From an uncultured Candidatus Saccharibacteria bacterium (GTDB taxonomy: Bacteria; Patescibacteriota; Minisyncoccia; Portnoybacterales; UBA2143), in contig CAZQUN010000001.1 of the NCBI GenBank assembly GCA_964596615.1, positions 66,786 through 130,785 of the forward strand: a stretch of DNA of 64,000 bases, given 5' to 3'. Below the pieces are notes generated by a model. That model was not told the origin of the DNA, searched no databases, and worked only from the letters and a program-made list of their open reading frames with translations. This document shows, in pieces, positions 38,325 to 53,084 of this stretch. A program made the position numbers and the translations under genes. Within the stretch, counting starts at the first letter, position 1, and every line of letters begins with the position of its first letter.

Positions 38325-39668
38325 CTATCCAGTAATATCTGTGCCAGTAGTATAGGCGTTCTTGTCAGTAGCGTTAATCTCGTAGATGGAATCAGCGTCA
38401 TAACCTCCGGCAGTAAATTCAGCTGCTGTCATGTTCAACCATTGTTTAGTCCCGGAATCACCATTAGCAATCAATTTGTAAACTTCGTCTTCTCCGGTTG
38501 CCCGGACCAAATCAGAAGTTGTGTATTCGTCCATTTTGGACTGGTTGACATCCAAAACATCGTTCCAAGGACTCCCATCTCCATCTTTGTCAAAATGCTC
38601 ATAGCTCTCAAAAACATGAGGACTTAGGATAAGACGCTTAAACTTACTACTACCAACTACTTTGACGATATAGATGTCGAACTGGGCCATGCCTTCGGCA
38701 TTAGGATTACGGATTAAGTCACCATCAACAACCGTTATTTCCGTTGAAGGAGTTTCTTCTGTCAGATCTTCTTCTTCTCCCTCTTCCCTGCCCATAACAG
38801 CAAAGTAAGTAAAGTGATCAGTTGTTGCAGTCAAACTATTATTCGTCTCATCAACTGTTGTTGGCAGAGCCACCCATTGGGAAGTAGATTCTTTCCAATA
38901 AAAGACCCTCAAGATTGATTCGTCTAGTCCTTCAATTTGACTATCGGTATAGGTGAAAGTTAGTGTGACAGTCTGGTCAAAACTACTGACTGCTTCTCCA
39001 CTGGCCGTAGCGGTAAAATCATAGACATAGGTTCCAACAACGCTTCTTCCCGAAGGAGTTGGCCGAGAATTGGTAATAGTATCCTTGGCTTTGGATTCTA
39101 CTTTAACATCTGTCGAAGCATCAACTGCGTCAGCCGGTAATTCTGCTGCTGCAGTTGTGTTTTCACCAGTTGTCAAGGTTGTCTTGCCTCCGCCTGAAGC
39201 GGTCGCGGTTACCTCGCCGGTTGTTGTCTCCGGCATTGTCGTTGAGGTTGTCTCTTCGGTGGTTGTTGTTGGAGTTGCGGTGCCTCCACCGCCTCCGCCG
39301 CCAGAGCTACCTCCGCCTCCACCAGTGCTACCGCAAACAGCATCAGTCGGAGTAACTTTTAAAGTAGAACCAATACTATTACCGCTAACATTTATTCGAG
39401 AATACGAGGCAGTACAGACGACATCTGCAGTTGGAGTAGTCCCTAAAGCTTTTCTGTTATTAGACTGGACAACCAATGATGAGCCACTAGAAAGGGAAAA
39501 AGTGACACTATTAGCACCAACAACCATCTGATCAACTGTTCCGCTGACTACTAAAGTATAGCCACCGACATCAACATTCGTATCGCTGAAAACAGCATCA
39601 TCAGCTCCATTAGCCACAAGTGGTAAAAGCAGCAGCAAAGACAAAACTGGAATAACAATTTTTCTCAT
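38325..39668 (-). CDS. Secreted Gly/Thr-rich surface protein with C-terminal ~130-aa module shared with the 1207-aa protein
   Basis: Signal peptide; poly-Gly/Thr linker; C-terminal LIRNPNAEGMAQFDIYIVKVVGSSKFKRL... is homologous to the N-terminus of the 40908..44531 product. Confidence 0.6.
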   Translation of the reverse strand: MRKIVIPVLSLLLLLPLVANGADDAVFSDTNVDVGGYTLVVSGTVDQMVVGANSVTFSLSSGSSLVVQSNNRKALGTTPTADVVCTASYSRINVSGNSIGSTLKVTPTDAVCGSTGGGGGSSGGGGGGGTATPTTTTEETTSTTMPETTTGEVTATASGGGKTTLTTGENTTAAAELPADAVDASTDVKVESKAKDTITNSRPTPSGRSVVGTYVYDFTATASGEAVSSFDQTVTLTFTYTDSQIEGLDESILRVFYWKESTSQWVALPTTVDETNNSLTATTDHFTYFAVMGREEGEEEDLTEETPSTEITVVDGDLIRNPNAEGMAQFDIYIVKVVGSSKFKRLILSPHVFESYEHFDKDGDGSPWNDVLDVNQSKMDEYTTSDLVRATGEDEVYKLIANGDSGTKQWLNMTAAEFTAGGYDADSIYEINATDKNAYTTGTDITG

Positions 39669-39745: not shown

Positions 39746-40609
39746 TTACTCCCAAATTTGCTTCCAGGCAGAGCCGTTGTAACAGTTAAGCTGGTTGTCG
39801 GTGTTGTCAACAAAACACTTTCCTGCAACCTCAGAAGTAGGAGTAGCTGTTGGTTCTAACTTGAGAGTGGTTTGAATGAAGATAGAACTGGTTGTTGCGA
39901 TTGAAGAAGTAGAATTACCGAAATACATAGTCCCGTCAACTTCGACATCACCCTGAACATAGATATCATTGGACATATCAATATTGTTCATTGTTCCTCC
40001 AGCGCCAGCCCAAAAACCGGTTGAAGTTGCTACACCACCAATATTCATGCCATCGCTAACGTCGAATTCTCCCGGGCTGTCATCCCATCTGATAAACTCT
40101 GATGAAGAAGCGTCAAAGAAGATAGAGTCGTCATCATCGGCGATAAGATTACCTACCCAGAAATCATTAGATGTTGAAGCGCTTTCAAAGGTAGCCCAGC
40201 CAGTGCCATAGAGAGTTCCGTCAATTTCAACATCATCCTGGACGTAGAGGTCATTGGACATATCAATATTGTTCATTGTTCCTCCAGCGCCAGCCCAAAA
40301 ACCGGTTGAGGTTACTTTGCCGCCAACGTTAAAATCGTCTGTTAAATCAAACTCTCCTGGAGCATTGTCCCACATTAGCCATTCGCTTCCTGAAGCATCA
40401 AAAAAGAGCGAGTCATCATCATCGGCAATAACATTGCCCAACCAGAAATCATTGGTTGTTGAAGCGCTTTCCATTGTTACAGTTCCAGCAGTATTAATGT
40501 TGCTGTCAATAGTGGTGGCTGCGTAAGTAATTACGCTAACCAAGAAAACCGAAACGATGACACTTAACAAACCAGCAAAAAATTGGTGTTTTTTGAATAT
40601 TTTACTCAT
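39746..40609 (-). CDS. Secreted/anchored protein with two tandem ~95-aa repeats
   Basis: N-terminal TM/signal; the 285-nt DNA repeat is visible as duplicated antisense ORFs both starting MDISILFIVPPAPAQKPVEV. Confidence 0.55.
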   Translation of the reverse strand: MSKIFKKHQFFAGLLSVIVSVFLVSVITYAATTIDSNINTAGTVTMESASTTNDFWLGNVIADDDDSLFFDASGSEWLMWDNAPGEFDLTDDFNVGGKVTSTGFWAGAGGTMNNIDMSNDLYVQDDVEIDGTLYGTGWATFESASTSNDFWVGNLIADDDDSIFFDASSSEFIRWDDSPGEFDVSDGMNIGGVATSTGFWAGAGGTMNNIDMSNDIYVQGDVEVDGTMYFGNSTSSIATTSSIFIQTTLKLEPTATPTSEVAGKCFVDNTDNQLNCYNGSAWKQIWE

Positions 40610-40823
40610 ATAATTCTGAAAAGCTCAAAGTTGAAACCTAAGGTGTATTATTCAGAAGTTCCAAGCCTTAACTTTTCAGCCCTAAAAATATTTTCGACCT
40701 TTCTTGTTTGATAACACTAACCAAGAATACAAACCGACCTTCTTGCATTCTTATAGGAATATATAGAATTTAACTTACTCAATAATTATACCATTGGACA
40801 AGAATTAAAAAAACCTGTCAATT

Positions 40824-40851
40824 GTGGATAAGTTCTATGGTTGTGGATAAT
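40824..40851 (-). promoter_or_regulatory. Two DnaA-box-like 9-mers (TTATCCACA on minus strand) abutting a TTGACA -35
   Basis: TGTGGATAA at 40824-40832 and 40843-40851; the minus strand reads TTATCCACAAccatagaaCTTATCCACAATTGACA. Confidence 0.4.
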
Positions 40852-40855
40852 TAAA

Positions 40856-40886
40856 AGACCCCCGAAAAACGGGGGCCTTTTGTCCA
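40856..40886 (-). terminator. Rho-independent terminator of the 1207-aa gene
   Basis: CCCCCG-aaaaa-CGGGGG hairpin; the minus strand reads GGCCCCCGTTTTTCGGGGGTCTTTT. Confidence 0.7.
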
Positions 40887-40907
40887 ATTCTGTAATAAAC
40901 CTACTCG

Positions 40908-43900
40908 TTAGCCAGACCAACCAATAACATATGGTGTGGTTGAAACAGCATTCTCTAAGCCTGGTACTAAGTGACCGTTATACCACATTGGTAGAGTGGT
41001 AGCGTTGTTAGCGCCAGTTCCTGAAATGCTCGCGCCCTTGTAGTTGTCAGACCATAGGAAGTTACCTAGGTTAGCTGACAGATTCTGGCCGGTTGGGGCC
41101 GTGAATCCTGAGGCGTTGGTAGCATTAGCGAAGTTATGGGTATTAACCTCGTTTGAAGTAGAAACTGTGTCACCAACTAGGAAGGTACTTAGGTTTTCAC
41201 CAGTACCTGCTCCTGAAACAGTACCGCAGACCTTATAAAGTTTGCTTTCGCCAGCCGGAATCTTAATAGCTTCCGTGCTGTCATCAACACTAATGTCTGG
41301 GTTGTCAAAGGTCGCTGTATACCAAGATTCCATATTGCCATCATAGTTGTTGATAGCAGCCGCTGATTTAATCGTATTGCCATCCTGGTCTTTGACATAG
41401 ACATTGGATAATGTCATGCCAGATCCAGAGGTAGCAAAGACGAAAGTAGTTCGATAGAGAAGAACTTCTCCACCGGAAGCATCGGCTGTAACCTTATAGG
41501 CATACATACAAACCGTACCGTTGGTCAGTTCGTCTGCCAAACCGATAGAGTCTGCATCGGTTGAACTAAGTGATCCGGCCTTAGTAACGGTCGGCTTGCT
41601 GGACCTCATAATCATGGCTGAACTGGTTGAATCACGATAAACCTCATAGGTACTAGTGGTAAGTTTGGTATTAGAGGACATACCTGTCGTCTGAATACCA
41701 TTGATACCGCCGATACCAAGCTTTAAGTCAGCTGAGTTAGTACCCGGCGAATTATCGGTGTCTGGGTCAATCGTGCTCATATCGGCTTTGATTGCCAAGG
41801 TCTTATCGCCACCCTTTGGAACGGTCAAGTCGCCAGCGTCAAAGTTGAAGGTGTACTTAGCGGTTGACGGAATAGCCGCTTCGCCTAACTTGGTTGTGCC
41901 ATCATAGACAGCAACATTAGTAAAGTCGCGGTATTCACCACTACCAGCGCTGAAGCCATAACTACCATCAGCTACATAGATTGTCAACTTGTCTAGCCTC
42001 AAATCTTCATACTTGGATGACAGTTTAACGTTGGTAAAGACATTTCCAGTTGAGCCGGCCAAAACAATCGCTGAAGAAGGATTGCTCTCGGTCTCAATTG
42101 TCAATTCTCCATTAGCTCTGGACGTCAAAGTTGGACCATCATCAGAGGTTAAGCTTTCGGTAACTGAGTTACCGGTGTTAACACCATAAGCGGTGATAGA
42201 GTCGCCCCGGAGACCCCAGTTTTCTGTATCATCAGAAACAACTGTGTCTTTATCACCGTGCAACTCAATTGTCATAACCGTACCCTTTTCAATGATGATT
42301 GGCTCTTCCAAAGCGAACGTTGAGGAAGCTGCTGCAGCATCAGAAGAATCAGAAATAGCGTCATTGACTGGAGATTGCGCCACATCATCAGCGTAAACAG
42401 TTAGCGCGTTGGTGTTGGTTGCAGCGAAACCGCTAGCCTTGGCGGTGAAGCCAATAGATGTAATTCTGATGTCTTCTCCTGAGTCAGTCGCATCAAAACG
42501 CCAGCTGGAAAGATTAACATCCTTCTGGTCAATAATGATGTTTGTGTCAGCAGGAAGAGTATTCCTGGTAACTGTCAATGAAGCTGCTTTAACTGTCTGA
42601 GTGTTGCCGCTAATAGATGAGGATGGGGTCGGCGTGATAGAATTGCCGGTTGTAACCCCTTGAGCAGTCATAGCTGAAGGAGTAAAACTGACAACAATAG
42701 TATCATCACTTGCCCAACCACCATTGGTAGCTAGGTCGCCTCGAACCTTGTAAATAGTGTTGCCAACCGGGACGGTAAAGGTATCTGTCCAGGCAACAGT
42801 CAAGACATTGTTAGTAATGTCTGTCGGACCAGCAACAACTGTTCCGTCAGGATCAACTAATTCCAAACCAGTCAAAGCGTCTTCAATCTGACCAGTACCT
42901 CCGCCGGAGGCAACAGTCAAAGTTAGAGCGGAAATATCAATCTCTTCACCCTTAACTTCGAAGTTAAAGGCGCCTAAGATTTGATCATTGGCAACGCCAA
43001 TGTTCTCTGAGCCAACTGAATTACTTCTGGTAACCTGCAAGGTACCATTAGAAATTGTGAATTGGTTATCGCTCAAGACTGGATTGCCACTGCTTGAACC
43101 AGTGCTGCTGTAGGTTGGAGTAATGTTATAACCATAGGTAACACCTTCAACCAATAGGTCGGTTGTTCGGTAAATACCCAGGTCAATGGTTCGAGCTGAA
43201 CCATCTTCAATATCGGCTCTGACTTGATACTGGAGGGTTTGTCCCTTATCAAGAGTAATCGGGTCGAAACTGAAGTTAACGTACTTGCTGCTGGCTACAA
43301 CGCCGTCAGCAACTTTTACTCCATCTTGAAGTAATTCCATGTTAATAACATCAGTTCCTAGAGTAGCGCTACCTTCCTGATAAACCTTAATCTGGCTGAA
43401 TTTAACTTTTTCAGCTGAACCAGCCTGAATCTGGAAGGAAAAGAAGGTGTAATCTTCTTTACCAACCTGAATGCTGGTTGAGGTCGCATTGGTGTAAGCG
43501 CCTCTTTGAACAGTAGCTGTACCAATAGCAATGGTGCTGTTCAAAGTCATTCGGTTACCAGTTAATGGCAAGCTGGCATTTACACTAGCGTCATCTTTAA
43601 CTGTAACAGCAGCTAGAGATAATGACGGTGTTTCACCGTTGTATGAATCTAGGCTGGCAGGCATGTTAGCCGCAATAATAATCGGCTTGGTTGTTCCATC
43701 CTCAACAGTAAAGTCGTTGTTAAAGGTTGACTTATGAAGTGAGTTTAGAGTTTTACTGTTGGTATTGATTGGCAAACCTGTGTCGCCATCAATAAGATCT
43801 AATGAGGAGAAACCGCCATCCTGACCAACGCCAGTTCTTTCAACTACTACCTGGTCAACGATAACATCGCCGCCTGAAGCAGTGAAGTTGAGTTTTGTGA

Positions 43901-44531
43901 AGTAATATCTGGCTGCGTTCTCAACAACGATAGCCGATGCTGGAGTGTCAGCCGCCAAAGAAACTGAAAGAGTTCCTTCGCTGGTAGTAGTGCCTGCTGG
44001 CGGGAAAGTTGCATTCGGATCAGTGACATTAGCACCAGACGTATACCCAGCTGAATCGGTGCTGTTAATGGTGTAAATTGAATCAGCGTCAAAGACCGCC
44101 GTGAACTCACTTGAGGTCATATTGAGCCAATACTTATCACCGGTATCAGTGCCATCGGCAGCATGGAGTCGGTAGACATTGTCAGCTCCATCAACTCTGA
44201 CTAGGTCAGAGGTAGAAAACTCGTCCATGGTTGACTGGTCAACATCCATAACATCATCCCAGTTATCACCATTGCCGTTCTTGTCAAAGTGTGCATAGCT
44301 CTCAAAAACATGAGGGCTAAGAACTAATCTTTTGTACTTCTCGCTGCCAACAACTTTAACAATATAGATGTCGAGTTGAGCTAATCCTGCAGCGCTTGGG
44401 TTGCGGATTAAATCACCATCAACAACATCGACTGCTAAAGCCGCTACTGGAGCAAGCATTGCTACTCCTGAAAGCGATAGAGTTGTAGCGATAGAAGTCA
44501 AAACTGTAATTGACTTTTTCATTTTATTCAT
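40908..44531 (-). CDS. Giant (1207 aa) secreted Ser/Thr-rich surface protein, probable adhesin/S-layer-like with Ig-like beta-rich repeats
   Basis: Signal peptide; N-terminal module shared with the 447-aa protein; low-complexity T/S/G/V-rich repeats. The 262-nt 5' UTR contains the GAGATTG/CAATCTC hairpin. Confidence 0.65.
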   Translation of the reverse strand: MNKMKKSITVLTSIATTLSLSGVAMLAPVAALAVDVVDGDLIRNPSAAGLAQLDIYIVKVVGSEKYKRLVLSPHVFESYAHFDKNGNGDNWDDVMDVDQSTMDEFSTSDLVRVDGADNVYRLHAADGTDTGDKYWLNMTSSEFTAVFDADSIYTINSTDSAGYTSGANVTDPNATFPPAGTTTSEGTLSVSLAADTPASAIVVENAARYYFTKLNFTASGGDVIVDQVVVERTGVGQDGGFSSLDLIDGDTGLPINTNSKTLNSLHKSTFNNDFTVEDGTTKPIIIAANMPASLDSYNGETPSLSLAAVTVKDDASVNASLPLTGNRMTLNSTIAIGTATVQRGAYTNATSTSIQVGKEDYTFFSFQIQAGSAEKVKFSQIKVYQEGSATLGTDVINMELLQDGVKVADGVVASSKYVNFSFDPITLDKGQTLQYQVRADIEDGSARTIDLGIYRTTDLLVEGVTYGYNITPTYSSTGSSSGNPVLSDNQFTISNGTLQVTRSNSVGSENIGVANDQILGAFNFEVKGEEIDISALTLTVASGGGTGQIEDALTGLELVDPDGTVVAGPTDITNNVLTVAWTDTFTVPVGNTIYKVRGDLATNGGWASDDTIVVSFTPSAMTAQGVTTGNSITPTPSSSISGNTQTVKAASLTVTRNTLPADTNIIIDQKDVNLSSWRFDATDSGEDIRITSIGFTAKASGFAATNTNALTVYADDVAQSPVNDAISDSSDAAAASSTFALEEPIIIEKGTVMTIELHGDKDTVVSDDTENWGLRGDSITAYGVNTGNSVTESLTSDDGPTLTSRANGELTIETESNPSSAIVLAGSTGNVFTNVKLSSKYEDLRLDKLTIYVADGSYGFSAGSGEYRDFTNVAVYDGTTKLGEAAIPSTAKYTFNFDAGDLTVPKGGDKTLAIKADMSTIDPDTDNSPGTNSADLKLGIGGINGIQTTGMSSNTKLTTSTYEVYRDSTSSAMIMRSSKPTVTKAGSLSSTDADSIGLADELTNGTVCMYAYKVTADASGGEVLLYRTTFVFATSGSGMTLSNVYVKDQDGNTIKSAAAINNYDGNMESWYTATFDNPDISVDDSTEAIKIPAGESKLYKVCGTVSGAGTGENLSTFLVGDTVSTSNEVNTHNFANATNASGFTAPTGQNLSANLGNFLWSDNYKGASISGTGANNATTLPMWYNGHLVPGLENAVSTTPYVIGWSG

Positions 44532-44784
44532 TTTGTTTCAATCTCTGAGATTGGCTAATTCATATGATATTAAACAATCTCATTCGACTTTTTTATCCCG
44601 TTTTACAGGGATTTCTTCAATCATATCGACCATTTATATTTACGATTGAATCTCTATTTATATCTCAAACCAGTCCAAAAGTCAAGGTTTTTTCACTATT
44701 TACGCGAAAACACGACCAATCCCTGACTTAGGCTTGGACTTCTTCAAATTATACAATAAATAAACTATTTTAAAACAACTTCTT

Positions 44785-44793
44785 TGTGGATAA
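44785..44793 (-). promoter_or_regulatory. DnaA-box-like 9-mer upstream of the giant-protein promoter
   Basis: TGTGGATAA abuts the anti-sigma gene stop; the minus strand reads TTATCCACAaagaagTTGTTT...TATAAT. Confidence 0.35.
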
Positions 44794-45546
44794 CTATTTC
44801 TCAATAATATCGTCTGTTGAAGTCACGGTTTCAAGGAAAATTAGGATTTCCTCGTCAATTATTCCGGTTGTAGTAGCATTATGATTGTTTTCTTCTCCAT
44901 TATCAATTAAAACCGCCAAAATATCCTGGCTAATTTCTTTAATCGTTTTTTCTGCTTCATCAATATCACCCTTAACCTCAATTGGCATTCCTTCCTTGGT
45001 TTTATCCAGGTTTTCCTTTAATCTTTTGGTCTTTTTAGCGACAACAACAGCCTCTTCTTTAGAAGAAATTCCTTTAACATGCTGGCTGAATCCAGCTAAA
45101 TTATCCTTAAAATTAGTCATGACCTGCTTGGTTTTTTCTGTTTTTTCTTCCGGACTAAAGGAATCCCCCGTTATTTTCGCCAATTCCTCTAATCGGCGGC
45201 TGGCAAATTTGACTTCCAGTTGAGTTTTGCTTTCCTGAGAAGCAACTGTTTTCTGAATATCTTCTCCTGCTCTTTTGACCGCATAAAGAAATTCTCCTGG
45301 CAAACTTGGCTCTGAGGCCTTTAATGTCAGCCATGGTCCAAGAACCAGAATCAAGGTCAAAGAGACAGCCAAAGCCATTGGCTGTAATCTCATAAACCAG
45401 CCGAAATCAAGGCTATTCCTTCCTTCTCTAACCATTTCAAAATCAATCTGAGCAGATAAATTACGGCGCAATAAGGCCAGCCAATGGCGAGACGGCTGGA
45501 TTTTATCCAATTTCTTTATTCTTTTGATTAAATCTTGTTCAGTCAT
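44794..45546 (-). CDS. Putative anti-sigma factor (single-TM, coiled-coil ectodomain)
   Basis: Immediately downstream of the ECF sigma gene; one TM at ~aa 55-75; context-based call. Confidence 0.35.
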   Translation of the reverse strand: MTEQDLIKRIKKLDKIQPSRHWLALLRRNLSAQIDFEMVREGRNSLDFGWFMRLQPMALAVSLTLILVLGPWLTLKASEPSLPGEFLYAVKRAGEDIQKTVASQESKTQLEVKFASRRLEELAKITGDSFSPEEKTEKTKQVMTNFKDNLAGFSQHVKGISSKEEAVVVAKKTKRLKENLDKTKEGMPIEVKGDIDEAEKTIKEISQDILAVLIDNGEENNHNATTTGIIDEEILIFLETVTSTDDIIEK

Positions 45547-45590
45547 GTATTACTATATTAAGACGATTAAAAACCCTTTTTGTTACAGGT

Positions 45591-46094
45591 TTAAAGCTTC
45601 TTTTTTAGAGCATTCATTGCCCGATGGACAAGAACCCGGGTTGCTCCCTCTGATTTACCTAAAATCTGGCTAATTTCCTTGGTTGAAAGTTCGTCTAAAT
45701 ACCGCCAGACAATCACATTCTGATGCTCATCTTTTAGTTGAGAAAGCGCCTTTTTAACCCCTTCCATATCCGAGTCTACCTTAATTTTAGCGCCTAGATC
45801 GCTTTTATCTTTAATTCCAGCTAAAACATTCTCGCTCGGGTTTAAAATTATTTCTTTCCTGGATTTCTTCCGATAGAGATCAATAACCAGATTATGGGCT
45901 ATCCGATAAAGTAAAGCCCGCGGATTATCTATCTTTTTCTTTTGGCGGTTGTTTTTAACATTTTGCCAGAACTTAAAAAAGGTTTCTGAAGTCAAATCTT
46001 CAGAATCTTCTGGCGAACTCACCTTTAGGAAAATGAAGCGATAAATTCGCGGAGCGTAGTTATCGTATAGTTTTACAAATTGTCTTTTTCTCAT
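45591..46094 (-). CDS. RNA polymerase sigma-70 factor, ECF subfamily
   Basis: Region 2 LYRIAHNLVIDLYRK and region 4 HTH ISQILGKSEGATRVLVHRAMNALKK. Confidence 0.8.
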   Translation of the reverse strand: MRKRQFVKLYDNYAPRIYRFIFLKVSSPEDSEDLTSETFFKFWQNVKNNRQKKKIDNPRALLYRIAHNLVIDLYRKKSRKEIILNPSENVLAGIKDKSDLGAKIKVDSDMEGVKKALSQLKDEHQNVIVWRYLDELSTKEISQILGKSEGATRVLVHRAMNALKKKL

Positions 46095-46103
46095 TTTAGC
46101 AGG

Positions 46104-46112
46104 TTATCCACA
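46104..46112 (+). promoter_or_regulatory. DnaA-box-like 9-mer, 9 nt upstream of the sigma start codon
   Basis: TTATCCACA on the plus strand. Confidence 0.35.
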
Positions 46113-46120
46113 AAAACAAG

Positions 46121-46213
46121 TAATAAGGAATTAATAAGGAATCTTCAGGATTAATAAGGAACTAATAGGGAATTAATAAGGAATTTTATTGTTCCTTATT
46201 AAGTTCCTTATTA
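46121..46213. repeat. Decamer array: 5 direct TAATAAGGAA (one TAATAGGGAA) plus 2 inverted TTCCTTATTA
   Basis: Seen directly; sits in the sigma promoter region; the inverted copies encode the C-terminal NKELNKEQ of the upstream HTH protein. Confidence 0.8.
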
Positions 46214-46722
46214 TTTCGATAAAAACTACTCCTTCCCCGGCCTTGCTGGATTAATAATTTCCTTTTAACCATTTTATTCAAATCTTTACGGATTGTTCTG
46301 GGATTAACCTTGGGAAGTAAAACTAATAATTCTTTTAATTGAACCTCTCTAACTTCTTTAATATATTTAAGAATCTTCTTTTGTCTTTCGCTTAGATTCT
46401 CAATTCTCTCTTTTTTTAAAAGATTTGTTTGTTCTTTCTTGTTTCCCCGTCTTATCTCTCTTAATAACTCATTATATCCCCTTATTAGTATATCAAAATT
46501 AACGTTTCTTATCCAATTCTGGTCCCGGGCAATTTGAAGATAACTTAAAATGATTTCTATTTTTTTACCGGCCTTTGCCCTTTGGTTTAAAGCTAAATCG
46601 GATAATATCTCATTGGCTATCCCTCTCATCTGGGAAATTAAAATCTCACCCCCGGGGAAAAGCTTGGTCACACGGTATACTGCCAAGCCTAATCTGAGTG
46701 CTTTTTCCTTCAAATCTTCCAT
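46186..46722 (-). CDS. Putative DNA-binding protein with C-terminal winged HTH (DeoR/HTH_11-like)
   Basis: SERQKKILKYIKE...VQLKELLVLLPKVNPRTIRKDLNKMVKRKLL resembles DeoR-type wHTH; N-terminal helical domain. Confidence 0.4.
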   Translation of the reverse strand: MEDLKEKALRLGLAVYRVTKLFPGGEILISQMRGIANEILSDLALNQRAKAGKKIEIILSYLQIARDQNWIRNVNFDILIRGYNELLREIRRGNKKEQTNLLKKERIENLSERQKKILKYIKEVREVQLKELLVLLPKVNPRTIRKDLNKMVKRKLLIQQGRGRSSFYRNNKELNKEQ

Positions 46723-46808
46723 GTATTAAAGAGTATATGATATTTAACAATTCAAGGCAACATAAAAGCGACTAAGAATTACTTTCCCTAGTCGCCATAT
46801 TTTTTGGG

Positions 46809-46898
46809 TGGTGGCGATGACGGGGCTCGAACCCGTGACAGTACGGCTACAGCCCACAGGTTATGAACCTGCCGCTCTATCCTCTGAGCTACATCGCC
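46809..46898 (-). tRNA. tRNA with CAT anticodon (Met/Ile2-type) carrying an unusual 19-nt variable region; 90 nt incl. CCA
   Basis: Hand fold: acceptor GGCGATG/CATCGCC, U8A9, D-stem GCTC/GAGC, anticodon stem GCAGG/CCTGT with loop TTCATAA, T-arm ACGGG-TTCGAGC-CCCGT, encoded CCA. Confidence 0.55.
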
Positions 46899-46911
46899 AC
46901 ACTTTTTGGGT

Positions 46912-46987
46912 TGGAGCGGGAGGCGGGAATCGAACCCACGACCCGCTGATTAAGACTCAGACGCTCTTCCAACTGAGCTACTTCCGC
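46912..46987 (-). tRNA. tRNA-Lys (CTT), 76 nt incl. CCA
   Basis: Hand fold: acceptor GCGGAAG/CTCCCGC (one A-C mismatch), D-stem GCTC/GAGC, anticodon loop GTCTTAA, T-arm GTGGG-TTCGATT-CCCGC, CCA. Confidence 0.65.
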
Positions 46988-47037
46988 CCAAAACCACTTA
47001 GGAACTAAAAAGAATTTATCATAAATATTTTTCCAAG

Positions 47038-47529
47038 TCAAACCTCAACCAACTCCGGACTCGCCCGGACTTTTCTAATGGGCTGGGAAATAAACTTTAT
47101 TTCAGCGGTAGCAATAGTATCTTTTCCCCTCAAAACAATTGCTCGACCTTCGGCCCAAGTATATCTCCCTAAATCTTTACTCGACATATTTTTTGTCCTC
47201 CTAAGCCGAGCCTTAACCACGACACTTTCGCCAATCAGTAAGAGGTTTTCAAAATCTATGATTGACTTCATCTCTACTCTACGAGTCATGCCCGCAATTC
47301 CATTCCTAGCAGCCAAATTACTCACCGCTCCGTCAATTAGACCGAAAATAATCGCTCCATGACAGATTCCAGGCCAACTAACATGGAAAGCATTAGGGGT
47401 AAACTCTGCTTCGCATCTGTTTTTGCCAGTATTTTCAAATTCCAGACCAAGCCCCCATGGATTTGAAGACCCGCAGACAAAACACCTGGGAGAATGTCCT
47501 TCTACTCCTGGCTTGCCATCCATAACCAA
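47038..47529 (-). CDS. Hotdog-fold thioesterase (PaaI/COG2050-like)
   Basis: CFVCGSSNPWGLGLEF matches the conserved N-terminal motif of PaaI-type thioesterases. Confidence 0.55.
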   Translation of the reverse strand: MVMDGKPGVEGHSPRCFVCGSSNPWGLGLEFENTGKNRCEAEFTPNAFHVSWPGICHGAIIFGLIDGAVSNLAARNGIAGMTRRVEMKSIIDFENLLLIGESVVVKARLRRTKNMSSKDLGRYTWAEGRAIVLRGKDTIATAEIKFISQPIRKVRASPELVEV

Positions 47530-47542
47530 TCCCTCTTTATTC

Positions 47543-48142
47543 CTATTTCAAAGAATATCCAGGGATTTTAATTTCCCCGGTTGTGATTTTTTGCAATGTT
47601 TTTGGGAATAAAATATGCTCTTGTTTTAAAACCCGGGCTGCCAAACTTTCTGGTGTATCATTTTTTTCAACCGGAACCCGAACTTGGGCAATAACCGGTC
47701 CGGTATCGTAGTCAGCATCAACAATATGAATTGAAACGCCAGTTTCCCTTTCTCCGGCTTTAAGAACCGCCTGATGAACCCTAATTCCATACATTCCGTC
47801 TCCGCCAAACTTGGGTAAAAGCGCTGGGTGAATATTTAAAATTGCCCCGTTATAGCGAGACAATATTTCCGGTCCGATTTTCTTCATATATCCAGCTAAA
47901 ACCACAATATCAACAGAATGTTTATTCAAGGCATCAATAATGGCCTGATCAAGATTTTGATGAGTCTTATTACTTAAATGAAAATAGGGGATATTTTCTT
48001 TTTTTGCTCTTTTAATTGCCCCTGAATCGCTGTTGTTACTAATGACAACAACCGGCTTTGCTTTCAAAGCCTCTGATTTGCAGGCATCAATAATCGCCTG
48101 CATATTACTTCCATTACCTGATGCTAAAAACCCAATTCTCAT
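47543..48142 (-). CDS. purN: Phosphoribosylglycinamide formyltransferase
   Basis: MRIGFLASGNGSNMQAIIDA; NIHPALLPKFGG; HIVDADYDTGPVIAQ. Confidence 0.85.
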   Translation of the reverse strand: MRIGFLASGNGSNMQAIIDACKSEALKAKPVVVISNNSDSGAIKRAKKENIPYFHLSNKTHQNLDQAIIDALNKHSVDIVVLAGYMKKIGPEILSRYNGAILNIHPALLPKFGGDGMYGIRVHQAVLKAGERETGVSIHIVDADYDTGPVIAQVRVPVEKNDTPESLAARVLKQEHILFPKTLQKITTGEIKIPGYSLK

Positions 48143-48189
48143 CGTTATATCCAGAATACCTTTTCACTATCAAAAGTCAATCTTTTGAC

Positions 48190-48218
48190 TTGACAAAACC
48201 AAATAATTTTGGTAGACT
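48190..48218 (+). promoter_or_regulatory. Sigma70-like promoter TTGACA-17-TAGACT for the His-rich ORF
   Basis: Seen directly; preceded by the AGTCAA/TTGACT inverted repeat. Confidence 0.45.
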
Positions 48219-48281
48219 GAATTAATTGAATTAAAAGAAAAACAAGTTCTCTTTAAATAAATTTCCGAAAAGGAGAGAGAA

Positions 48282-48629
48282 ATGAGAAAAGTAGTAATAG
48301 TTCTTTTTTTAGTCGCTGTTATGATTTTTATGACGGCGATAGGGGCGACGGCTCGCCCTGGTCACGGTCAGGCTCGCGGTCACGGTCCACGATGGCATGG
48401 ACACGGGCATGGTCCACGGTGGCCCCTTGTACCATTTGTGCCATGTCTTGTTTCGTGGCCCCATCGTGATTCACCTCCCCGTGACTATTCCGTACGGTAC
48501 GACCCAGCAGTGCCTGCCCGCGGCTGCTGGATCTGGGTTGAGAGTTACCGGATTCCAGGACATTGGAATCGTCACGGTCATTGGGTCAACGAGCTCCGAG
48601 TGGGGGAATGGAAAAGGTGTCCCCCATAA
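48282..48629 (+). CDS. GC-rich small secreted His/Arg/Trp/Pro-rich protein (115 aa) with HGPRW-type repeats
   Basis: Strong SD AAAGGAGAGAGAA-ATG; signal peptide; ~60% GC body in a ~33% GC genome; strong terminator follows. Confidence 0.5.
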   Translation: MRKVVIVLFLVAVMIFMTAIGATARPGHGQARGHGPRWHGHGHGPRWPLVPFVPCLVSWPHRDSPPRDYSVRYDPAVPARGCWIWVESYRIPGHWNRHGHWVNELRVGEWKRCPP

Positions 48630-48644
48630 AAATAAACCCTTTCC

Positions 48645-48682
48645 GGCCAGCTCTATAAATGTATAGATCTGGCCATTTTTTA
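48645..48682. terminator. Rho-independent terminator (bidirectional)
   Basis: GGCCAGcTCTATAaatgTATAGAtCTGGCC hairpin followed by TTTTTT. Confidence 0.75.
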
Positions 48683-48701
48683 TTATGGCTCGTATTTGAC
48701 A

Positions 48702-49319
48702 TTATCCATTAATATCATTTAGAGCAATTTCGGCAACCTCCTCAGAGACTCCAAATATCTTTGACATTAAGACTGCTAGGTAGGAATCTAATGTCTTTTT
48801 GTCTATTTCCTCTAGTTTCTTGGATAAAGCAAGCTTATCTTTCTCTTTTAGTATTTTGTTTTTTCTAGACGCCAATATATCTCTTGGCACTAGCAAATAG
48901 TTAGCAAATTTATTTGCTTGTGTTTCCAAATAACTATACTGTTTTTCTGGAATTTCTCGGTAAAGCCTGTAAAAATCGATTGGATTTCTAATGTTAAGAC
49001 CCTTATAGAATTCTTTATGCAAAACAAAATGGCCCACTTCATGAGCCAGTGAAAATCTCAAACGATTCTGAAAACGATCGCTTAAAAACCTGCCTTTATC
49101 GACGTAGATGGATTTCCAGTTTGAAGTGATAAGAGCGTCAACATCAAAACTTTTCTGCAGTCCTGACTTGGGAATAAGGTCTATTTCTAGCTTTATATCA
49201 ATAATACTTTCTATATCAACTGGCACAGACCCATCCCAGAATTTTTCCCTAAATAAATCTGCTTTCTTTTTTACGACTAAATTATCTAAAAAGGGAACTA
49301 CTATCTTTCTGTAATCCAT
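48702..49319 (-). CDS. ImmA/IrrE family zinc metallopeptidase (COG2856-like)
   Basis: HEVGHFVLH HExxH motif; directly downstream of an XRE HTH gene. Confidence 0.7.
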   Translation of the reverse strand: MDYRKIVVPFLDNLVVKKKADLFREKFWDGSVPVDIESIIDIKLEIDLIPKSGLQKSFDVDALITSNWKSIYVDKGRFLSDRFQNRLRFSLAHEVGHFVLHKEFYKGLNIRNPIDFYRLYREIPEKQYSYLETQANKFANYLLVPRDILASRKNKILKEKDKLALSKKLEEIDKKTLDSYLAVLMSKIFGVSEEVAEIALNDING

Positions 49320-49320
49320 T

Positions 49321-49692
49321 TCAACTACCCCTGATTAATTCTATTAATTTATCTATTTCTTCCTTGGTCGGTTTTTTATTCCGAACAGTCCTAAAAAAAG
49401 CGGGTAGGTACTCAACCGCATTTTTTTGAGATAAGATATCCCGAGGAATAATGCCTTGAGCCACTTTAGCCTGATCTATAAGCTCCCCGGTTTTATTCTG
49501 GGAGAGTCCTAAAGTTTTTGCCCATTTTCGCAAGATTCTTTCATCAGACGGAGGAGAAATAATTCCTCTTTCTATTTTACTCCAATTACTTGGATCATAA
49601 TCTATTAACCGACACATCTTTCTTAGGGTTAGTCCTCTTTGAATCCTCATCTCTTTTAAGTTTTTACCAAATTTTTTAAGGTTTTTGTACAT
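49321..49692 (-). CDS. XRE-family helix-turn-helix transcriptional regulator
   Basis: LKEMRIQRGLTLRKMCRLIDYDPSNWSKIERG matches the HTH_3 pattern. Confidence 0.75.
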   Translation of the reverse strand: MYKNLKKFGKNLKEMRIQRGLTLRKMCRLIDYDPSNWSKIERGIISPPSDERILRKWAKTLGLSQNKTGELIDQAKVAQGIIPRDILSQKNAVEYLPAFFRTVRNKKPTKEEIDKLIELIRGS

Positions 49693-49719
49693 AATATTAG
49701 AGATAATTATTTATTCTCC

Positions 49720-49739
49720 TGTGGTATTATCCTACCACA
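49720..49739. promoter_or_regulatory. Operator-like palindrome TGTGGTA-ttatcc-TACCACA overlapping the XRE gene -10 region
   Basis: Seen directly; 7-bp perfect arms. Confidence 0.4.
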
Positions 49740-49767
49740 ATAATATGTTGGATGTCAAATAAACATC

Positions 49768-49776
49768 TGTGGATAA
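49768..49776 (-). promoter_or_regulatory. DnaA-box-like 9-mer, 9 nt upstream of the TTGACA -35 of the XRE gene
   Basis: The minus strand reads TTATCCACAgatgtttatTTGACA. Confidence 0.35.
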
Positions 49777-49962
49777 ATTCTACGGTTCGTATCTGATATT
49801 ATCTCCCAAAACAACATCGGAGCTAATAAGCTGCAAGGGCTGAGCACTACCATACCGGAAAAGGATATGGTCCAATTCTCCCCGACTGCCGGTAAAGAAC
49901 TTAATATTCTTCCAGTCGCCAACCGCCGGCGTTGTGCTGACATTGTCTTTTGAATTTTATTG

Positions 49963-51453
49963 TTAAATCTGAACTATTTCGTCCATTTTCGTCTGTAAGA
50001 AATTGTTAATTATCTCGTCCCTATTTCTATCAAGAACAGCATTAAGCAAGACAATTATATCTTTGTCCGTCAAAACAAATACATAAACGCTCCTATTGAT
50101 AACAAAATCTCTACAAGTTTCCAAAGCTCTTTTTTTATTTTTGATACCCCTACACACAATATACCCGATGGTAGATTCGCGGTTATTAAATCTGCCATTC
50201 ATTTGGTCATACTCAGGGTTATTTATGTCGTGACTATAATTCTTACATTCAAACAATATCTTAGCGCAGAATAATCTGCCATAATTAGATAGCCGCGAGA
50301 AAAAACCCCTATCGCTTGAATTATGAAAAGTAATGTCTATTCTTTTTCTGCCTTGGTTTTGGGGGTCTTCCTTTTTAGGACCGCATAAGTAATTACTTGA
50401 ACTGGGGTCATTAAAAATCGTATTTAAACAATCTAGAATATGTTCGTGATAATCGTCAGCATCTTGATTTCCGGGTTTTATTTTTTGAAACATTTTTATT
50501 TTCTGAGTTATAGACTCTTGTATCTCATTTTTTCTTCTTTGCTTCTTTATAATATCTTCGTTTCCAACAGTATTTAAAGCAACCTTGCTCTTTTTGTTCT
50601 TATATTCTTTTAGTAAAGTTGGACGGTCCTTAATATAATCAAACACTAGTTCCCGTGACAGATTATACCGCCCATCTTTTTTAAGAGTCTTCTTGTATGG
50701 TTTAGCTATGCTTTTGTCTTTAAGAGTCCGACATAAAGCAGTTCTCAAATCATAATGTCTGGCTTGCTCAAACTCCAGTATTCCTTTGTTGTAAAAGTCA
50801 GCATAATTTATTGAGATATGTCTTCTTAATACCCTTTTAGGCACTAGCAACATCTTTTTACCTTCAACCACCAATAATCTTTCTTGGTTTTTCTGAAGAA
50901 AATCCCTTTTAGACTCATCCCAAAATATCTTGGTCTGAGTTTCTGCCATATCAATACCATATAAATCACATTGTTGTTGGGTATACTTAATTAAATCTAA
51001 TCTAATTATGTTCGTTACAATATCAGATACATTATCATTTCCGATATTCTCTATATGTAACGCGGTATCTTCAAGGTCGTTTAAATAACCAGACTTAACC
51101 GCCTTACTCTCTTTTAATTTACGGTAAATAGCTCTTGATTTTTTTCTGCCAATAGATTTTCCATCCTTTGTCTTGCGACCATAACCCAGTCCAGTTTCGC
51201 TAGGTTCGTGTAAATTATCTAATAAATCTAAAGCTTTATCCCTATTGCCCTTACGGATATAATTTATCAATCTTTCAAAAACAGATTGTATCTTTTGATA
51301 GCAATCCACAGAAAAATCATCATCTCCGCATCTTATAGCCCAAGGATCAATAAATAGAGGCGTATCCTTTTTGATAAAGCAATCAAAAAAATCCAAATCA
51401 TACTGGGTTTTTCCTAATTCAAAATATTCGGAAATAGTCTTTTTCATTTTCAT
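49963..51453 (-). CDS. Hypothetical protein with C-terminal PD-(D/E)xK nuclease-like motif (restriction-endonuclease-like; possible defense protein)
   Basis: RIDITF ... LFECKNY (D...ExK arrangement); the 350-aa N-terminal domain has no recognisable motif. Confidence 0.35.
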   Translation of the reverse strand: MKMKKTISEYFELGKTQYDLDFFDCFIKKDTPLFIDPWAIRCGDDDFSVDCYQKIQSVFERLINYIRKGNRDKALDLLDNLHEPSETGLGYGRKTKDGKSIGRKKSRAIYRKLKESKAVKSGYLNDLEDTALHIENIGNDNVSDIVTNIIRLDLIKYTQQQCDLYGIDMAETQTKIFWDESKRDFLQKNQERLLVVEGKKMLLVPKRVLRRHISINYADFYNKGILEFEQARHYDLRTALCRTLKDKSIAKPYKKTLKKDGRYNLSRELVFDYIKDRPTLLKEYKNKKSKVALNTVGNEDIIKKQRRKNEIQESITQKIKMFQKIKPGNQDADDYHEHILDCLNTIFNDPSSSNYLCGPKKEDPQNQGRKRIDITFHNSSDRGFFSRLSNYGRLFCAKILFECKNYSHDINNPEYDQMNGRFNNRESTIGYIVCRGIKNKKRALETCRDFVINRSVYVFVLTDKDIIVLLNAVLDRNRDEIINNFLQTKMDEIVQI

Positions 51454-51455
51454 AA

Positions 51456-51854
51456 TCAGGGCAACGTCTCACAAGCCGACCCGTCTTTGTCTCGGTCTAG
51501 CCCGTGAACATCGTTAGATATTCCACCACAATACTCGTAGACCCCTTGGGCTTGTCTGTGGGTAGAGAAATCATCGCAGTTGTAGGCATTGTAAGAACAA
51601 GTATATTTCGGGGTTGGCTCGGGTTCTTTCTTAAAAATCTCGTCAAGCGTAGGTTTGGATTCAACTGGCTCTTGTTCTTCTTCTTTTAATTGTTCTGAAT
51701 CGGTTGGCTGTTCTAAATCAGCTGGTTGTTCTAACCTAGTATTAACCGACTGGATAATGTTTGCTTCCTGATTGTTCTTTTCATCACTACCAGAAAAAGC
51801 GATGATTAGGATAATCACCATTACTCCTCCAGCGATGTAAAGATATTTTTTCAT
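51456..51854 (-). CDS. Secreted Excalibur calcium-binding domain protein
   Basis: Signal/TM; C-terminal CDDFSTHRQAQ...GLDRDKDGSACE matches the Excalibur DxDxDGxxCE motif. Confidence 0.65.
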   Translation of the reverse strand: MKKYLYIAGGVMVIILIIAFSGSDEKNNQEANIIQSVNTRLEQPADLEQPTDSEQLKEEEQEPVESKPTLDEIFKKEPEPTPKYTCSYNAYNCDDFSTHRQAQGVYEYCGGISNDVHGLDRDKDGSACETLP

Positions 51855-51860
51855 ATTTTT

Positions 51861-52454
51861 TTATTCAATATCATCAATGTTATATCCAGCCGCCAAACAA
51901 TGGTCTTTAGTCATTTGTATTAAGCCATCCCAGCTATTTAGGTTTCCATCAATGTATTGTATTTCATTTCTGTATTTGCCGTATTTTGATTTTAAAAGAT
52001 TAACCTCGCCTATAAACATAAAATAAGCATTCTCTCGAGTAGTGCGTGCTTTAATGATACTTGGACAAAGTTGCTTTGGAGAATTAAGAACAGCCCCAAG
52101 CAAAAGTTCTCCTAATTCTTCAACATCATCGGTTGCTAATTTATATTCGGTCAAAATAGTATCGTTATCCTTTTGGGGTTGTATATAGACAGGTTTTTCT
52201 ATGATTTTTTCTTGTGGTAGCTGTTGTTTAAGTGTTTCTATTTCCTGTTTTAATGCTTCTATTGTATCTTGAGTAGTCGTGCCAGATTCATCGGACGTTT
52301 CTTGTTGATTAGGTAGTATTTGAGCTTTCTGATGTTGCCAATCACTATATTTGCCAAACCCATAAGAAAAAACTAAGCCGACACCGATGACAAGTAAGCC
52401 GACTTTTAACCATTCCTTTCTTAGGAATTCTATAATTTTGTCTTTTTCTTCCAT
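51861..52454 (-). CDS. Hypothetical membrane-anchored protein with coiled-coil
   Basis: N-terminal TM; QQ/EE-rich coiled coil. Confidence 0.35.
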   Translation of the reverse strand: MEEKDKIIEFLRKEWLKVGLLVIGVGLVFSYGFGKYSDWQHQKAQILPNQQETSDESGTTTQDTIEALKQEIETLKQQLPQEKIIEKPVYIQPQKDNDTILTEYKLATDDVEELGELLLGAVLNSPKQLCPSIIKARTTRENAYFMFIGEVNLLKSKYGKYRNEIQYIDGNLNSWDGLIQMTKDHCLAAGYNIDDIE

Positions 52455-52835
52455 ATTTTTATTATACTGACTATTTCTATAAAATCAACCCTGACAGATA
52501 GATGGATATTCAACAGAGATTAGATAGTAATCTTTTTAAAAATAAAAACCCAATAGGCCGTAAACTATTGAGTAAAAAGTTCTTTTCCTAGCCAGTTGTC
52601 TAATAGTTCCCAGATAATACTTGGATTAGCATAGCACCATCATCTCCTTTGTATACTTTAATTTAGGAATCCGAGAAAATCAGGTTCTCTAGGGTTTCCG
52701 AAGATTTACATATCTCCCCATAGAAACTGCAAGGGCTTGGGGCGTGAACTAGCCGAGCCTCATTTACAGCAACTGGCTAGGAAAATAGCTAGCGTATTTA
52801 GTTTAATTCTTTTATTTTATTTTGTCAAATCATCA

Positions 52836-53084
52836 TCAAGAGAACCCGATCCCATATCCTAAAAACCCGGCTAGGGCTGATTTGGAGATTTGTTTGATGC
52901 TCTTGTTATACCAAACCAGAGAAATTCCGCCCAGAAGTCCCAGCACAATAATTGCCATAAAGTGAAAAGGATATTCCAAATCCGGCAACTCGCGATAAAG
53001 TATCCATCCCCAAAGCAAACCGCCCAAACCAAATCCAATAATATTGATTAATAAATATTTTTTAAAAGATATATTCTCAAACAT
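52836..53084 (-). CDS. Small 2-TM membrane protein (82 aa)
   Basis: Strong SD (GGAGG) upstream; Gly-zipper-like GFGLGGLLWG. Confidence 0.45.
   Translation of the reverse strand: MFENISFKKYLLINIIGFGLGGLLWGWILYRELPDLEYPFHFMAIIVLGLLGGISLVWYNKSIKQISKSALAGFLGYGIGFS

Follow-up and report, generated by a model that had tools for sequence, protein, structure and literature searches.

The 64,000-nucleotide stretch of DNA analysed here, referred to as the window, belongs to contig CAZQUN010000001.1 of an uncultured Candidatus Saccharibacteria bacterium (assembly GCA_964596615.1). Next to purN, and on the other side to a pair of genes encoding an ImmA peptidase and an XRE-type helix-turn-helix (HTH) protein, it carries a small cassette with a single open reading frame (ORF), which we call ORF115. 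An initial annotation had described this ORF as a 115-codon gene with a textbook Shine-Dalgarno (SD) sequence, a signal peptide, a strong terminator and repeats in both the DNA and the encoded peptide. We found the same frame, with the same coordinates and an ATG start, and each of these attributes was borne out, the signal peptide in the form of a signal-like N-terminus (Table 1). As argued below, ORF115 is likely to be a genuine gene for an exported protein.

Table 1. Features of the ORF115 cassette and of its right-hand border, in window coordinates
Feature	Position	Strand	Remarks
Strain-specific cassette, promoter to terminator	48183..48683	+	About 0.5 kb; without counterpart in a close relative (blastn)
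Sigma-70-type promoter-like site, TTGACA-17 nt-TAGACT, with TG upstream of the -10 hexamer	48190-48218	+	10 of 12 matches; consensus match only
SD sequence AAGGAG	48270-48275	+	6 nt 5' of the ORF115 ATG
ORF115	48282-48629	+	115 codons, ATG start; stop codon 48627-48629
Predicted Sec-type signal peptide or signal anchor, MRKVVIVLFLVAVMIFMTAIGATA	48282..48353	+	Candidate cleavage motif A-T-A
His/Gly/Arg/Trp repeat tail, RPGHGQARGHGPRWHGHGHGPRWP	48354..48425	+	Carries the in-frame DNA repeats GGTCACGGTC and GGTCCACGRTGG
Pro-rich linker with one Cys, mature residues 25-57	48426..48524	+	Includes the short predicted strand YSVRY
C-terminal Trp-rich segment, CWIWVESYRIPGHWNRHGHWVNELRVGEWKRCPP, and stop codon	48525..48629	+	Predicted beta-hairpin
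Intrinsic-terminator-like hairpin, GGCCAGCTCTATA-AATG-TATAGATCTGGCC, then A and TTTTTT	48645..48681	+	Sequence reading and RNA fold
LTD-end 23-mer, copy 1	48684..48706	.	Immediately 3' of the ORF115 terminator; forms the right border of the cassette and the left border of the XRE/ImmA module
LTD-end 23-mer, copy 2	49781..49803	.	Start of the 167-bp LTD remnant (49781-49947); context, outside the gene

A single reading frame with its own expression signals

The SD sequence, the ATG codon, a signal-like N-terminus, an open body, the stop codon and the terminator of ORF115 are colinear and occupy one frame. The stop codon lies 15 nt ahead of the terminator hairpin, which spans 48645-48674 and consists of 12 bp with one mismatch, the T-run TTTTTT following at 48676-48681. 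This hairpin was overlooked by a simple terminator scan because of the single mismatch, and is visible in the RNA fold. In a crude scan, imprecise in that starts were taken as longest-ORF calls, only 9 of 57 long host ORFs were preceded by an SD-like motif. The strong SD sequence of ORF115 is thus unusual, and the host as a whole seems sparing in its use of such sequences.

The repeats within the body of the ORF also respect the reading frame. GGTCACGGTC is present inside ORF115 in two exact copies and a third with one mismatch; across the window there is one further one-mismatch match, at 2223, giving four in total compared with 0.53 expected. GGTCCACGRTGG occurs twice. The repeats are essentially restricted to ORF115, their spacings (18, 27 and 192 nt) are multiples of three, and they encode the peptide series GHGQAR-GHGPRW-HGHGHGPRW.

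The predicted product of ORF115

The N-terminus of the protein begins with a basic n-region (MRK), followed by a hydrophobic core of 18 residues (mean Kyte-Doolittle value 3.0) and the motif A-T-A. By the heuristic criteria used to judge signal peptides, from which the cleavage site was also inferred, 10 of the 93 ATG-initiated ORFs of at least 60 amino acids (aa) in the window have a signal-like N-terminus, and that of ORF115 is the most hydrophobic of the ten. The other nine are all long minus-strand ORFs taken as host genes, several of which start with MRK or MKK, and there is no spurious overlapping ORF in the set. Apart from ORF115, a signal-like N-terminus is therefore confined to long host ORFs in this window.

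Removal of the putative signal would leave a mature domain of 91 residues and 10.7 kDa, with a computed pI of about 10.4 and net charge of about +7.5. Among its residues are 14 Pro, 12 Arg, 11 Gly, 9 His, 8 Trp and 3 Cys. The histidines are clustered, six of the nine falling within the first 24 mature residues, where they form HG repeats that include HGHGHG and two HGPRW units.

We modelled the mature product with AlphaFold2 from its single sequence. Residues 1-40 were predicted to be disordered, with predicted local distance difference test (pLDDT) values below 50 for the His/Gly tail. Strands were predicted at residues 45-49, 58-71 and 77-89, the last two forming a C-terminal hairpin (block mean pLDDT 69, 80 and 65; 18 residues at or above 70). 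In the predicted register Cys58 lies opposite Cys89 at the open end of the hairpin and Trp residues alternate on both strands, such that a Cys58-Cys89 disulfide probably closes the structure. The product of the +1 frame, modelled as a control, had a mean pLDDT of 39.9 and no residue at or above 70.

Origin of the GC spike

The initial annotation had also remarked that the body of the ORF is far richer in GC than its neighbours. Indeed, GC content is 55.5% over the whole of ORF115 and 60.4% over its mature part, the latter lying 4.7 standard deviations above the mean of the 64 kb (36.5%, standard deviation 5.1%), and the best 273-bp segment, at 62.3%, is the maximum of the entire window. By first, second and third codon position (GC1, GC2 and GC3) the mature part has values of 0.73, 0.60 and 0.48, with GC3 in the neighbouring genes being about 0.26-0.45.

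Two causes had been suggested for this anomaly, recent horizontal acquisition or a bias driven by amino acids, and both appear to contribute. When the mature sequence was re-encoded with the window's own synonymous codon frequencies, a GC content of 54% was predicted, compared with the 60% observed and a background of 36.5%. Roughly three quarters of the excess thus comes from amino-acid composition, and the spike is due mainly to codons for Gly, Pro, Arg, His, Ala and Trp. What is left is an atypical, non-host choice of codons. CGN accounts for 11 of the 12 Arg codons of the mature part (binomial P = 8e-5 against a host share of 35%), and in no host gene with at least 12 Arg codons does its share exceed 75%. 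Four of the nine His codons of ORF115 are CAC versus 16% in host genes. Such a pattern is consistent with import from a GC-richer donor, and the foreign-looking Arg codons and the strong SD sequence, together with a close relative that lacks the cassette (see below), fit the acquisition part of the original proposal.

The second-highest GC peak of the window (39081-39353, 55.7%) is likewise composition-driven. It falls inside an ORF on the minus strand (38325-39668) whose secreted product of 447 aa contains a poly-Gly/Ser and Thr-rich tract (GGGGGSSGGGGGGG/Thr-rich) and has no Pfam match.

Searches for relatives of ORF115

The homologue search that the initial annotation had proposed recovered ORF115 only. 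A word-indexed search of the protein against 5.8 billion clusters found nothing but ORF115 itself, and an exhaustive phmmer search of 1.84 billion representatives added a single protein (P0006, E = 6.8e-4), which we rejected as a homologue since the match is an artefact of tandem repeats; the protein is eukaryote-like and its own Pfam matches make no sense. The remaining five reading frames, searched as concatenated protein, gave zero matches at E <=1. Scans of genome, metagenome and viral contigs did not find loci homologous to ORF115, and blastn against phages and plasmids gave marginal chance matches only, lying outside or across the AT-rich leader. The metagenome contig collection is incomplete and its negatives are weak, since an exact 27-mer scan for the purN junction returned nothing from it, though two JGI contigs (L084 and L086) contain this sequence.

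Searches at the level of families and structures gave a similar picture. There were zero family matches to ORF115 in Pfam-A, NCBIfam, PADLOC or PHROGs (E limits 0.1 to 10), the best match among PDB sequences (E = 0.18) was spurious, and Foldseek found no match to the ORF115 model in the PDB at E <=0.001. We also considered PF12779, the family of WXXGXW/YXWGXW-type Trp-Gly repeats. This candidate was rejected, as hmmscan against Pfam gave nothing at E up to 10 for either the full or the mature protein and the exhaustive search returned no member.

The initial annotation had named two outcomes that would change the picture, namely that the +1 frame is the conserved one, or that the region is a GC-rich repeat found elsewhere in the genome. 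No homologue of the +1 frame was found, and its structure model is the worse of the two. Similarly, a low-stringency search of the 64-kb window and of 90 fetched loci revealed no paralogue or second copy.

History of the locus

By way of a cluster-mate of PurN (P0005) we reached a close relative (GCA_964594965.1, contig L082) and matching JGI, ENA and Logan contigs. In blastn the relative is 80-89% identical to the window over the genes for a 1207-aa protein, a DUF5667 protein, a sigma factor, a DeoR-type protein, tRNA-Met and purN, up to position 48182. There is then no match at 48183-49780, a match of 167 bp at 49781-49947, and none again at 49948-52842, homology resuming from 52843. DNA identity is about 85% in both flanks of the cassette, which itself has no counterpart in the relative and is thus strain-specific. 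The 167-bp match covers the final codons of an LTD/beta-helix gene that encodes 1111 aa in the relative.

At the position of the cassette (7249-7975 of L082, equivalent to 48183-48683 of the window), the relative carries an IS200-like Y1_Tnp gene with ATCGATTT...AAATCGAT palindromes at both ends. The presence of an insertion sequence (IS) exactly where the window has ORF115 suggests that the purN/LTD junction is an insertion hot spot. Additionally, the last 23 nt of the LTD gene, which read TACGGCTCGTATTTGATATTATC in the relative, are found twice in the window, with two mismatches each and 0 expected by chance. We conclude that the XRE/ImmA pair was inserted into the LTD terminus with duplication of this sequence, or else by recombination at it, and that before this insertion the ORF115 terminator abutted the LTD stop codon.

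Since purN and the LTD gene are co-oriented and the spacer in the relative is tiny, the simplest history starts from a compact junction in the ancestor, into which ORF115 was inserted in one lineage and an IS in the other. Alternatively, ORF115 may have been lost from the relative. We lean towards a strain-specific acquisition of the cassette. No mobility gene or terminal repeats were found on the cassette itself. Synteny through distant PurN relatives was uninformative, the best matches being about 70% identical and spread over many phyla.

A number of other features of the surrounding DNA were noted. Between the 167-bp LTD remnant and an 82-aa remnant (52836-53084) of a 212-aa membrane-protein gene lies a 2.9-kb replacement island (49948-52842). 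It encodes a 496-aa PDC-M36A/phrog_27295 protein, a protein of 132 aa with an Excalibur domain, and one of 197 aa that has a weak Rz-like spanin match. This island looks like a defence-related or phage-derived insertion. An independent Logan assembly of SRR24302413 contains window positions 40280-49939 at 100% identity as contig L001. This contig ends at 49939, within the LTD remnant and shortly ahead of the PDC-M36A island, which may point to co-existing strain variants at the junction. The window also encodes an extracytoplasmic function sigma factor together with the DUF5667 protein, and secreted proteins with LTD, PKD and Excalibur domains. Along with the named ImmA homologues (see below), this gene content suggests that the low-GC genome is that of a bacterium resembling the candidate phyla radiation (CPR), probably Parcubacteria-like.

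PurN (47543-48142, minus strand) has its best matches outside its own species cluster at only about 70% identity, and these are spread among Dehalococcoidia, Syntrophus-like and other phyla. Taken with the locally raised GC content of about 35-48 kb, this may indicate an older horizontally acquired block in a CPR-like genome. The gene for tRNA-Met(CAU) (46809-46898, minus strand) is 90 nt long and has an insert of 14 nt (GCTGTAGCCGTACT) in the variable region that can form a small hairpin. Its orthologue in the relative has 77 nt and lacks the insert, a long variable arm being unusual for a tRNA with a CAU anticodon.

The neighbouring XRE/ImmA pair

ORF115 is convergent with the ImmA (Peptidase_M78) gene, which ends 72 nt away, and the XRE HTH gene lies beyond. 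The pair (48702-49692) makes up a 1.07-kb module between the two imperfect 23-nt direct repeats and has no recombinase of its own. In PADLOC its members score as capP (7.8e-17) and capH (2.3e-6), and the gene for the 496-aa protein upstream has a PADLOC match to PDC-M36A, a candidate defence protein (4.3e-42), and also matches phrog_27295 (1.4e-82). Homologues of the ImmA protein are numerous, with identities of about 50-79% among the 120 matches listed, the few named ones being from Parcubacteria, Paceibacterota and Nealsonbacteria. XRE/ImmA pairs homologous to this one occur widely among Parcubacteria-type genomes, and their contexts vary. Four of these, on long contigs from such genomes, have unrelated housekeeping neighbours and no small convergent gene.

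The adjacency and the PADLOC scores, including that of the PDC-M36A candidate upstream, could be taken to mean that ORF115 is a regulated cargo of a CapH/CapP-like module, acting as an effector induced by damage or phage. In the CapH/CapP systems described, the operon under control is found upstream of capH and on the other strand, with a promoter region common to both (10.1101/2022.04.27.489752). In contrast, ORF115 is downstream of capP, in convergent orientation and with its own promoter, the capH promoter being at least about 1.1 kb away, and is therefore not in the position of a target operon. Its likeness to these defence operons is restricted to the neighbourhood of an XRE HTH and M78 peptidase pair. 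Furthermore, the pair is bracketed by the 23-nt direct repeats and so arrived separately, and no comparable small gene accompanies the four homologous pairs. We consider a role as cargo very unlikely. On the grounds of orientation, separate insertion and the contexts of the homologous pairs, we conclude that the two elements appear to be neighbours by coincidence. Thus, the initial annotation was correct in placing ORF115 beside the module, and a functional link between the two is not supported.

Discussion

The best overall explanation of these results, which we put forward tentatively, is that the locus is a strain-specific orphan cassette for an exported cationic peptide that responds to metal or pH and acts on the cell envelope. 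According to this model, a Sec signal, either cleaved after ATA or kept as an anchor, would put the basic domain of 91 residues outside the cytoplasm. There it would present a disordered GHG/HGPRW/HGHGHG tail, a Pro-rich linker and a Trp-rich beta-hairpin closed by the Cys58-Cys89 disulfide. The His/Gly tail might bind Zn2+, Cu2+ or Ni2+, or else gain charge at low pH, and in this way tune binding, and the Cys-closed Trp/Arg hairpin might insert at the membrane interface or bind wall polymers. The protein would then act on the envelope of cells near the producer or of its host, either against competitors or on the host cell surface. Such a mode of action would be similar to that of metal- or pH-potentiated His-rich antimicrobial peptides, combined with that of a disulfide-stapled beta-hairpin peptide. 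Taken by itself, an envelope-active or antimicrobial role of the product, suggested by this analogy, would be possible and rather doubtful. Metal binding and antimicrobial activity, the two functions raised in the initial annotation, are plausible and still head the list of candidates.

The product is best described as a so-far singleton within the broad kind of small exported cationic His/Trp-rich peptides. It resembles known peptide classes in design, and none of the membership tests that could be run (homology, an immunity gene, a family profile) placed it in one of them. Histatin 5, the clavanins and the shepherins are His-rich antimicrobial peptides that are potentiated by metal or pH. 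With these and with kininogen domain 5, the predicted protein has in common that it would be short, exported and cationic, its His-Gly repeats being clustered within a disordered segment. However, the known examples are all eukaryotic and show no sequence homology, and ORF115 adds a Pro-rich linker and a folded Trp-rich hairpin, as predicted. HGHGHG peptides of kininogen domain 5 are reportedly antifungal. Arenicin, tachyplesin, protegrin and thanatin are disulfide-stapled beta-hairpin antimicrobial peptides, and ORF115 resembles them in its predicted antiparallel hairpin, which is rich in Trp, Arg and Val and has Cys at the open end. Against this, the ring of ORF115 would span about 32 residues rather than 8-18, the hairpin charge is only about +2, there is no homology, and the hairpin is predicted from a single sequence at a pLDDT of 65-80.

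A bacterial parallel is offered by the Sec-dependent class II bacteriocins, such as enterocin P, hiracin JM79 and lactococcin 972. These are likewise encoded by small stand-alone genes, with a Sec-type signal rather than a double-glycine leader, a cationic product and possible disulfides. As regards these properties, the N-terminus of ORF115 is signal-like by heuristics only and the mature pI is 10.4. Unlike the bacteriocins, ORF115 has no YGNGV/pediocin box and no homology to them, and its mature part is larger and of low complexity. It also has no cognate immunity gene adjacent to it, the cassette being a single ORF between its own promoter and terminator with purN and, on the other strand, ImmA as neighbours.

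Several observations weigh against the explanation that we favour. The total lack of homologues means that conservation, the ratio of non-synonymous to synonymous substitution rates (dN/dS) and co-occurrence give no backing for translation or selection. A position-specific nucleotide model trained on the host scored the ORF frame at -9.8 bits versus +5.5 for the +1 frame. By our own rough estimate, an open frame of 91 codons has a chance of about 5% per frame in DNA of 60% GC, and the +1 frame is also largely open. The structure model has a mean pLDDT of 51.8, a low overall confidence, and no structural match. The long hydrophobic segment may be an uncleaved anchor. No gene for immunity, transport, metal homeostasis or a modification enzyme adjoins the cassette, and the functional reading draws on composition and analogy only.

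Some of these observations would suit a non-functional ORF, that is, GC-rich imported junk DNA or a small-RNA gene whose frame is open by chance, in which case any transcript made between the promoter and the terminator would be non-coding, if one is made at all. The absence of homologues in any frame, the positional statistics and the ease with which frames remain open at this GC content can all be cited in its favour, and the RNA folds somewhat better than shuffled sequences (z = -2.9 and -2.5 on the two strands). However, the similarity of these scores on both strands points to composition and repeats rather than to a strand-specific RNA. Rfam 15 at gathering thresholds found only two tRNAs in the window, and at E <=10 it gave three noise matches at 48100-48750, far below gathering scores. 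A known structured RNA was rejected for these reasons, as was a fragment of a known gene in another frame, given that the five other frames are without match. Moreover, the GC-rich body continues the frame set by the SD sequence, the ATG and a predicted signal peptide of host style, the stop codon immediately precedes the terminator, every repeat spacing is a multiple of three, and the ORF-frame product models better than the +1-frame control. We therefore regard a non-functional ORF as unlikely. It is scarcely credible that a GC-rich fragment from another organism was mis-joined into an AT-rich contig during assembly. The sharp jump in GC content and the unique sequence are what such a chimera would give, but the same 9.66 kb is present at 100% identity in the Logan assembly (the two assemblies may share the same reads), the frame runs seamlessly from the AT-rich SD sequence and signal peptide through the GC-rich body to the AT-rich terminator within about 450 nt, and GC3 is only 0.48.

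If ORF115 is indeed a gene, its product might instead handle metal outside the cytoplasm, serving as a sponge, chaperone or buffer for Zn, Cu or Ni with no antimicrobial or host-directed activity, the hairpin being merely a unit of folding or oligomerisation. The density of histidine, with 9 in 91 residues and two thirds of them in the N-terminal HG repeats, would fit such a role, as would the export predicted from the signal-like N-terminus. HGHGHG-type stretches are said to form loops and tails that bind Cu or other divalent metals. HG repeats are also found in the C-terminus of mycobacterial GroEL1, the IRT1 loop and the prion octarepeat PHGGGWGQ, in which the repeat unit likewise includes Trp and Pro. 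In ORF115, on the other hand, the repeats belong to a separate exported mini-protein. Prion-type HGGGW copper sites use a backbone amide, and the Pro that follows Gly in HGPRW, at the third position, eliminates it and is incompatible with coordination through this nitrogen. Neither Pfam nor NCBIfam contains a metal-binding family that matches the protein, there is no metal transporter, sensor or resistance gene nearby, and the gene, which is strain-specific, stands alone outside any homeostasis operon. We consider metal handling doubtful, and rank it slightly below an envelope-active peptide because the cassette is stand-alone, strain-specific and without metal-homeostasis neighbours.

A bolder version of the envelope-active model can also be envisaged. 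ORF115 could be the founding, and so far sole, member of a new class of bacterial exported effectors, in which a His/Gly tail that serves as a metal or pH switch is combined with a Trp-zipper-like hairpin closed by a disulfide. Its recent birth in, or import into, an episymbiotic CPR bacterium would have provided a means to attack or attach to neighbours or the host, and the minimal cassette, running from promoter to terminator, would move between strains at an intergenic hot spot without a mobility gene of its own. We think it quite improbable that all of this holds.

Orphan small secreted proteins are common in genomes of this sort, and on present evidence ORF115 is one orphan gene among many, of modest importance. 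The locus nevertheless illustrates how a sharp GC anomaly can be mostly an effect of amino-acid composition, and how a single intergenic site, that between purN and LTD, has been the target of insertion three times independently among closely related strains. Should the peptide be produced and prove active, an uncultured CPR-type bacterium would have yielded a rare candidate effector or antimicrobial, unusual in joining a metal- or pH-responsive tail to a Trp-rich stapled hairpin and cheap to obtain by peptide synthesis.

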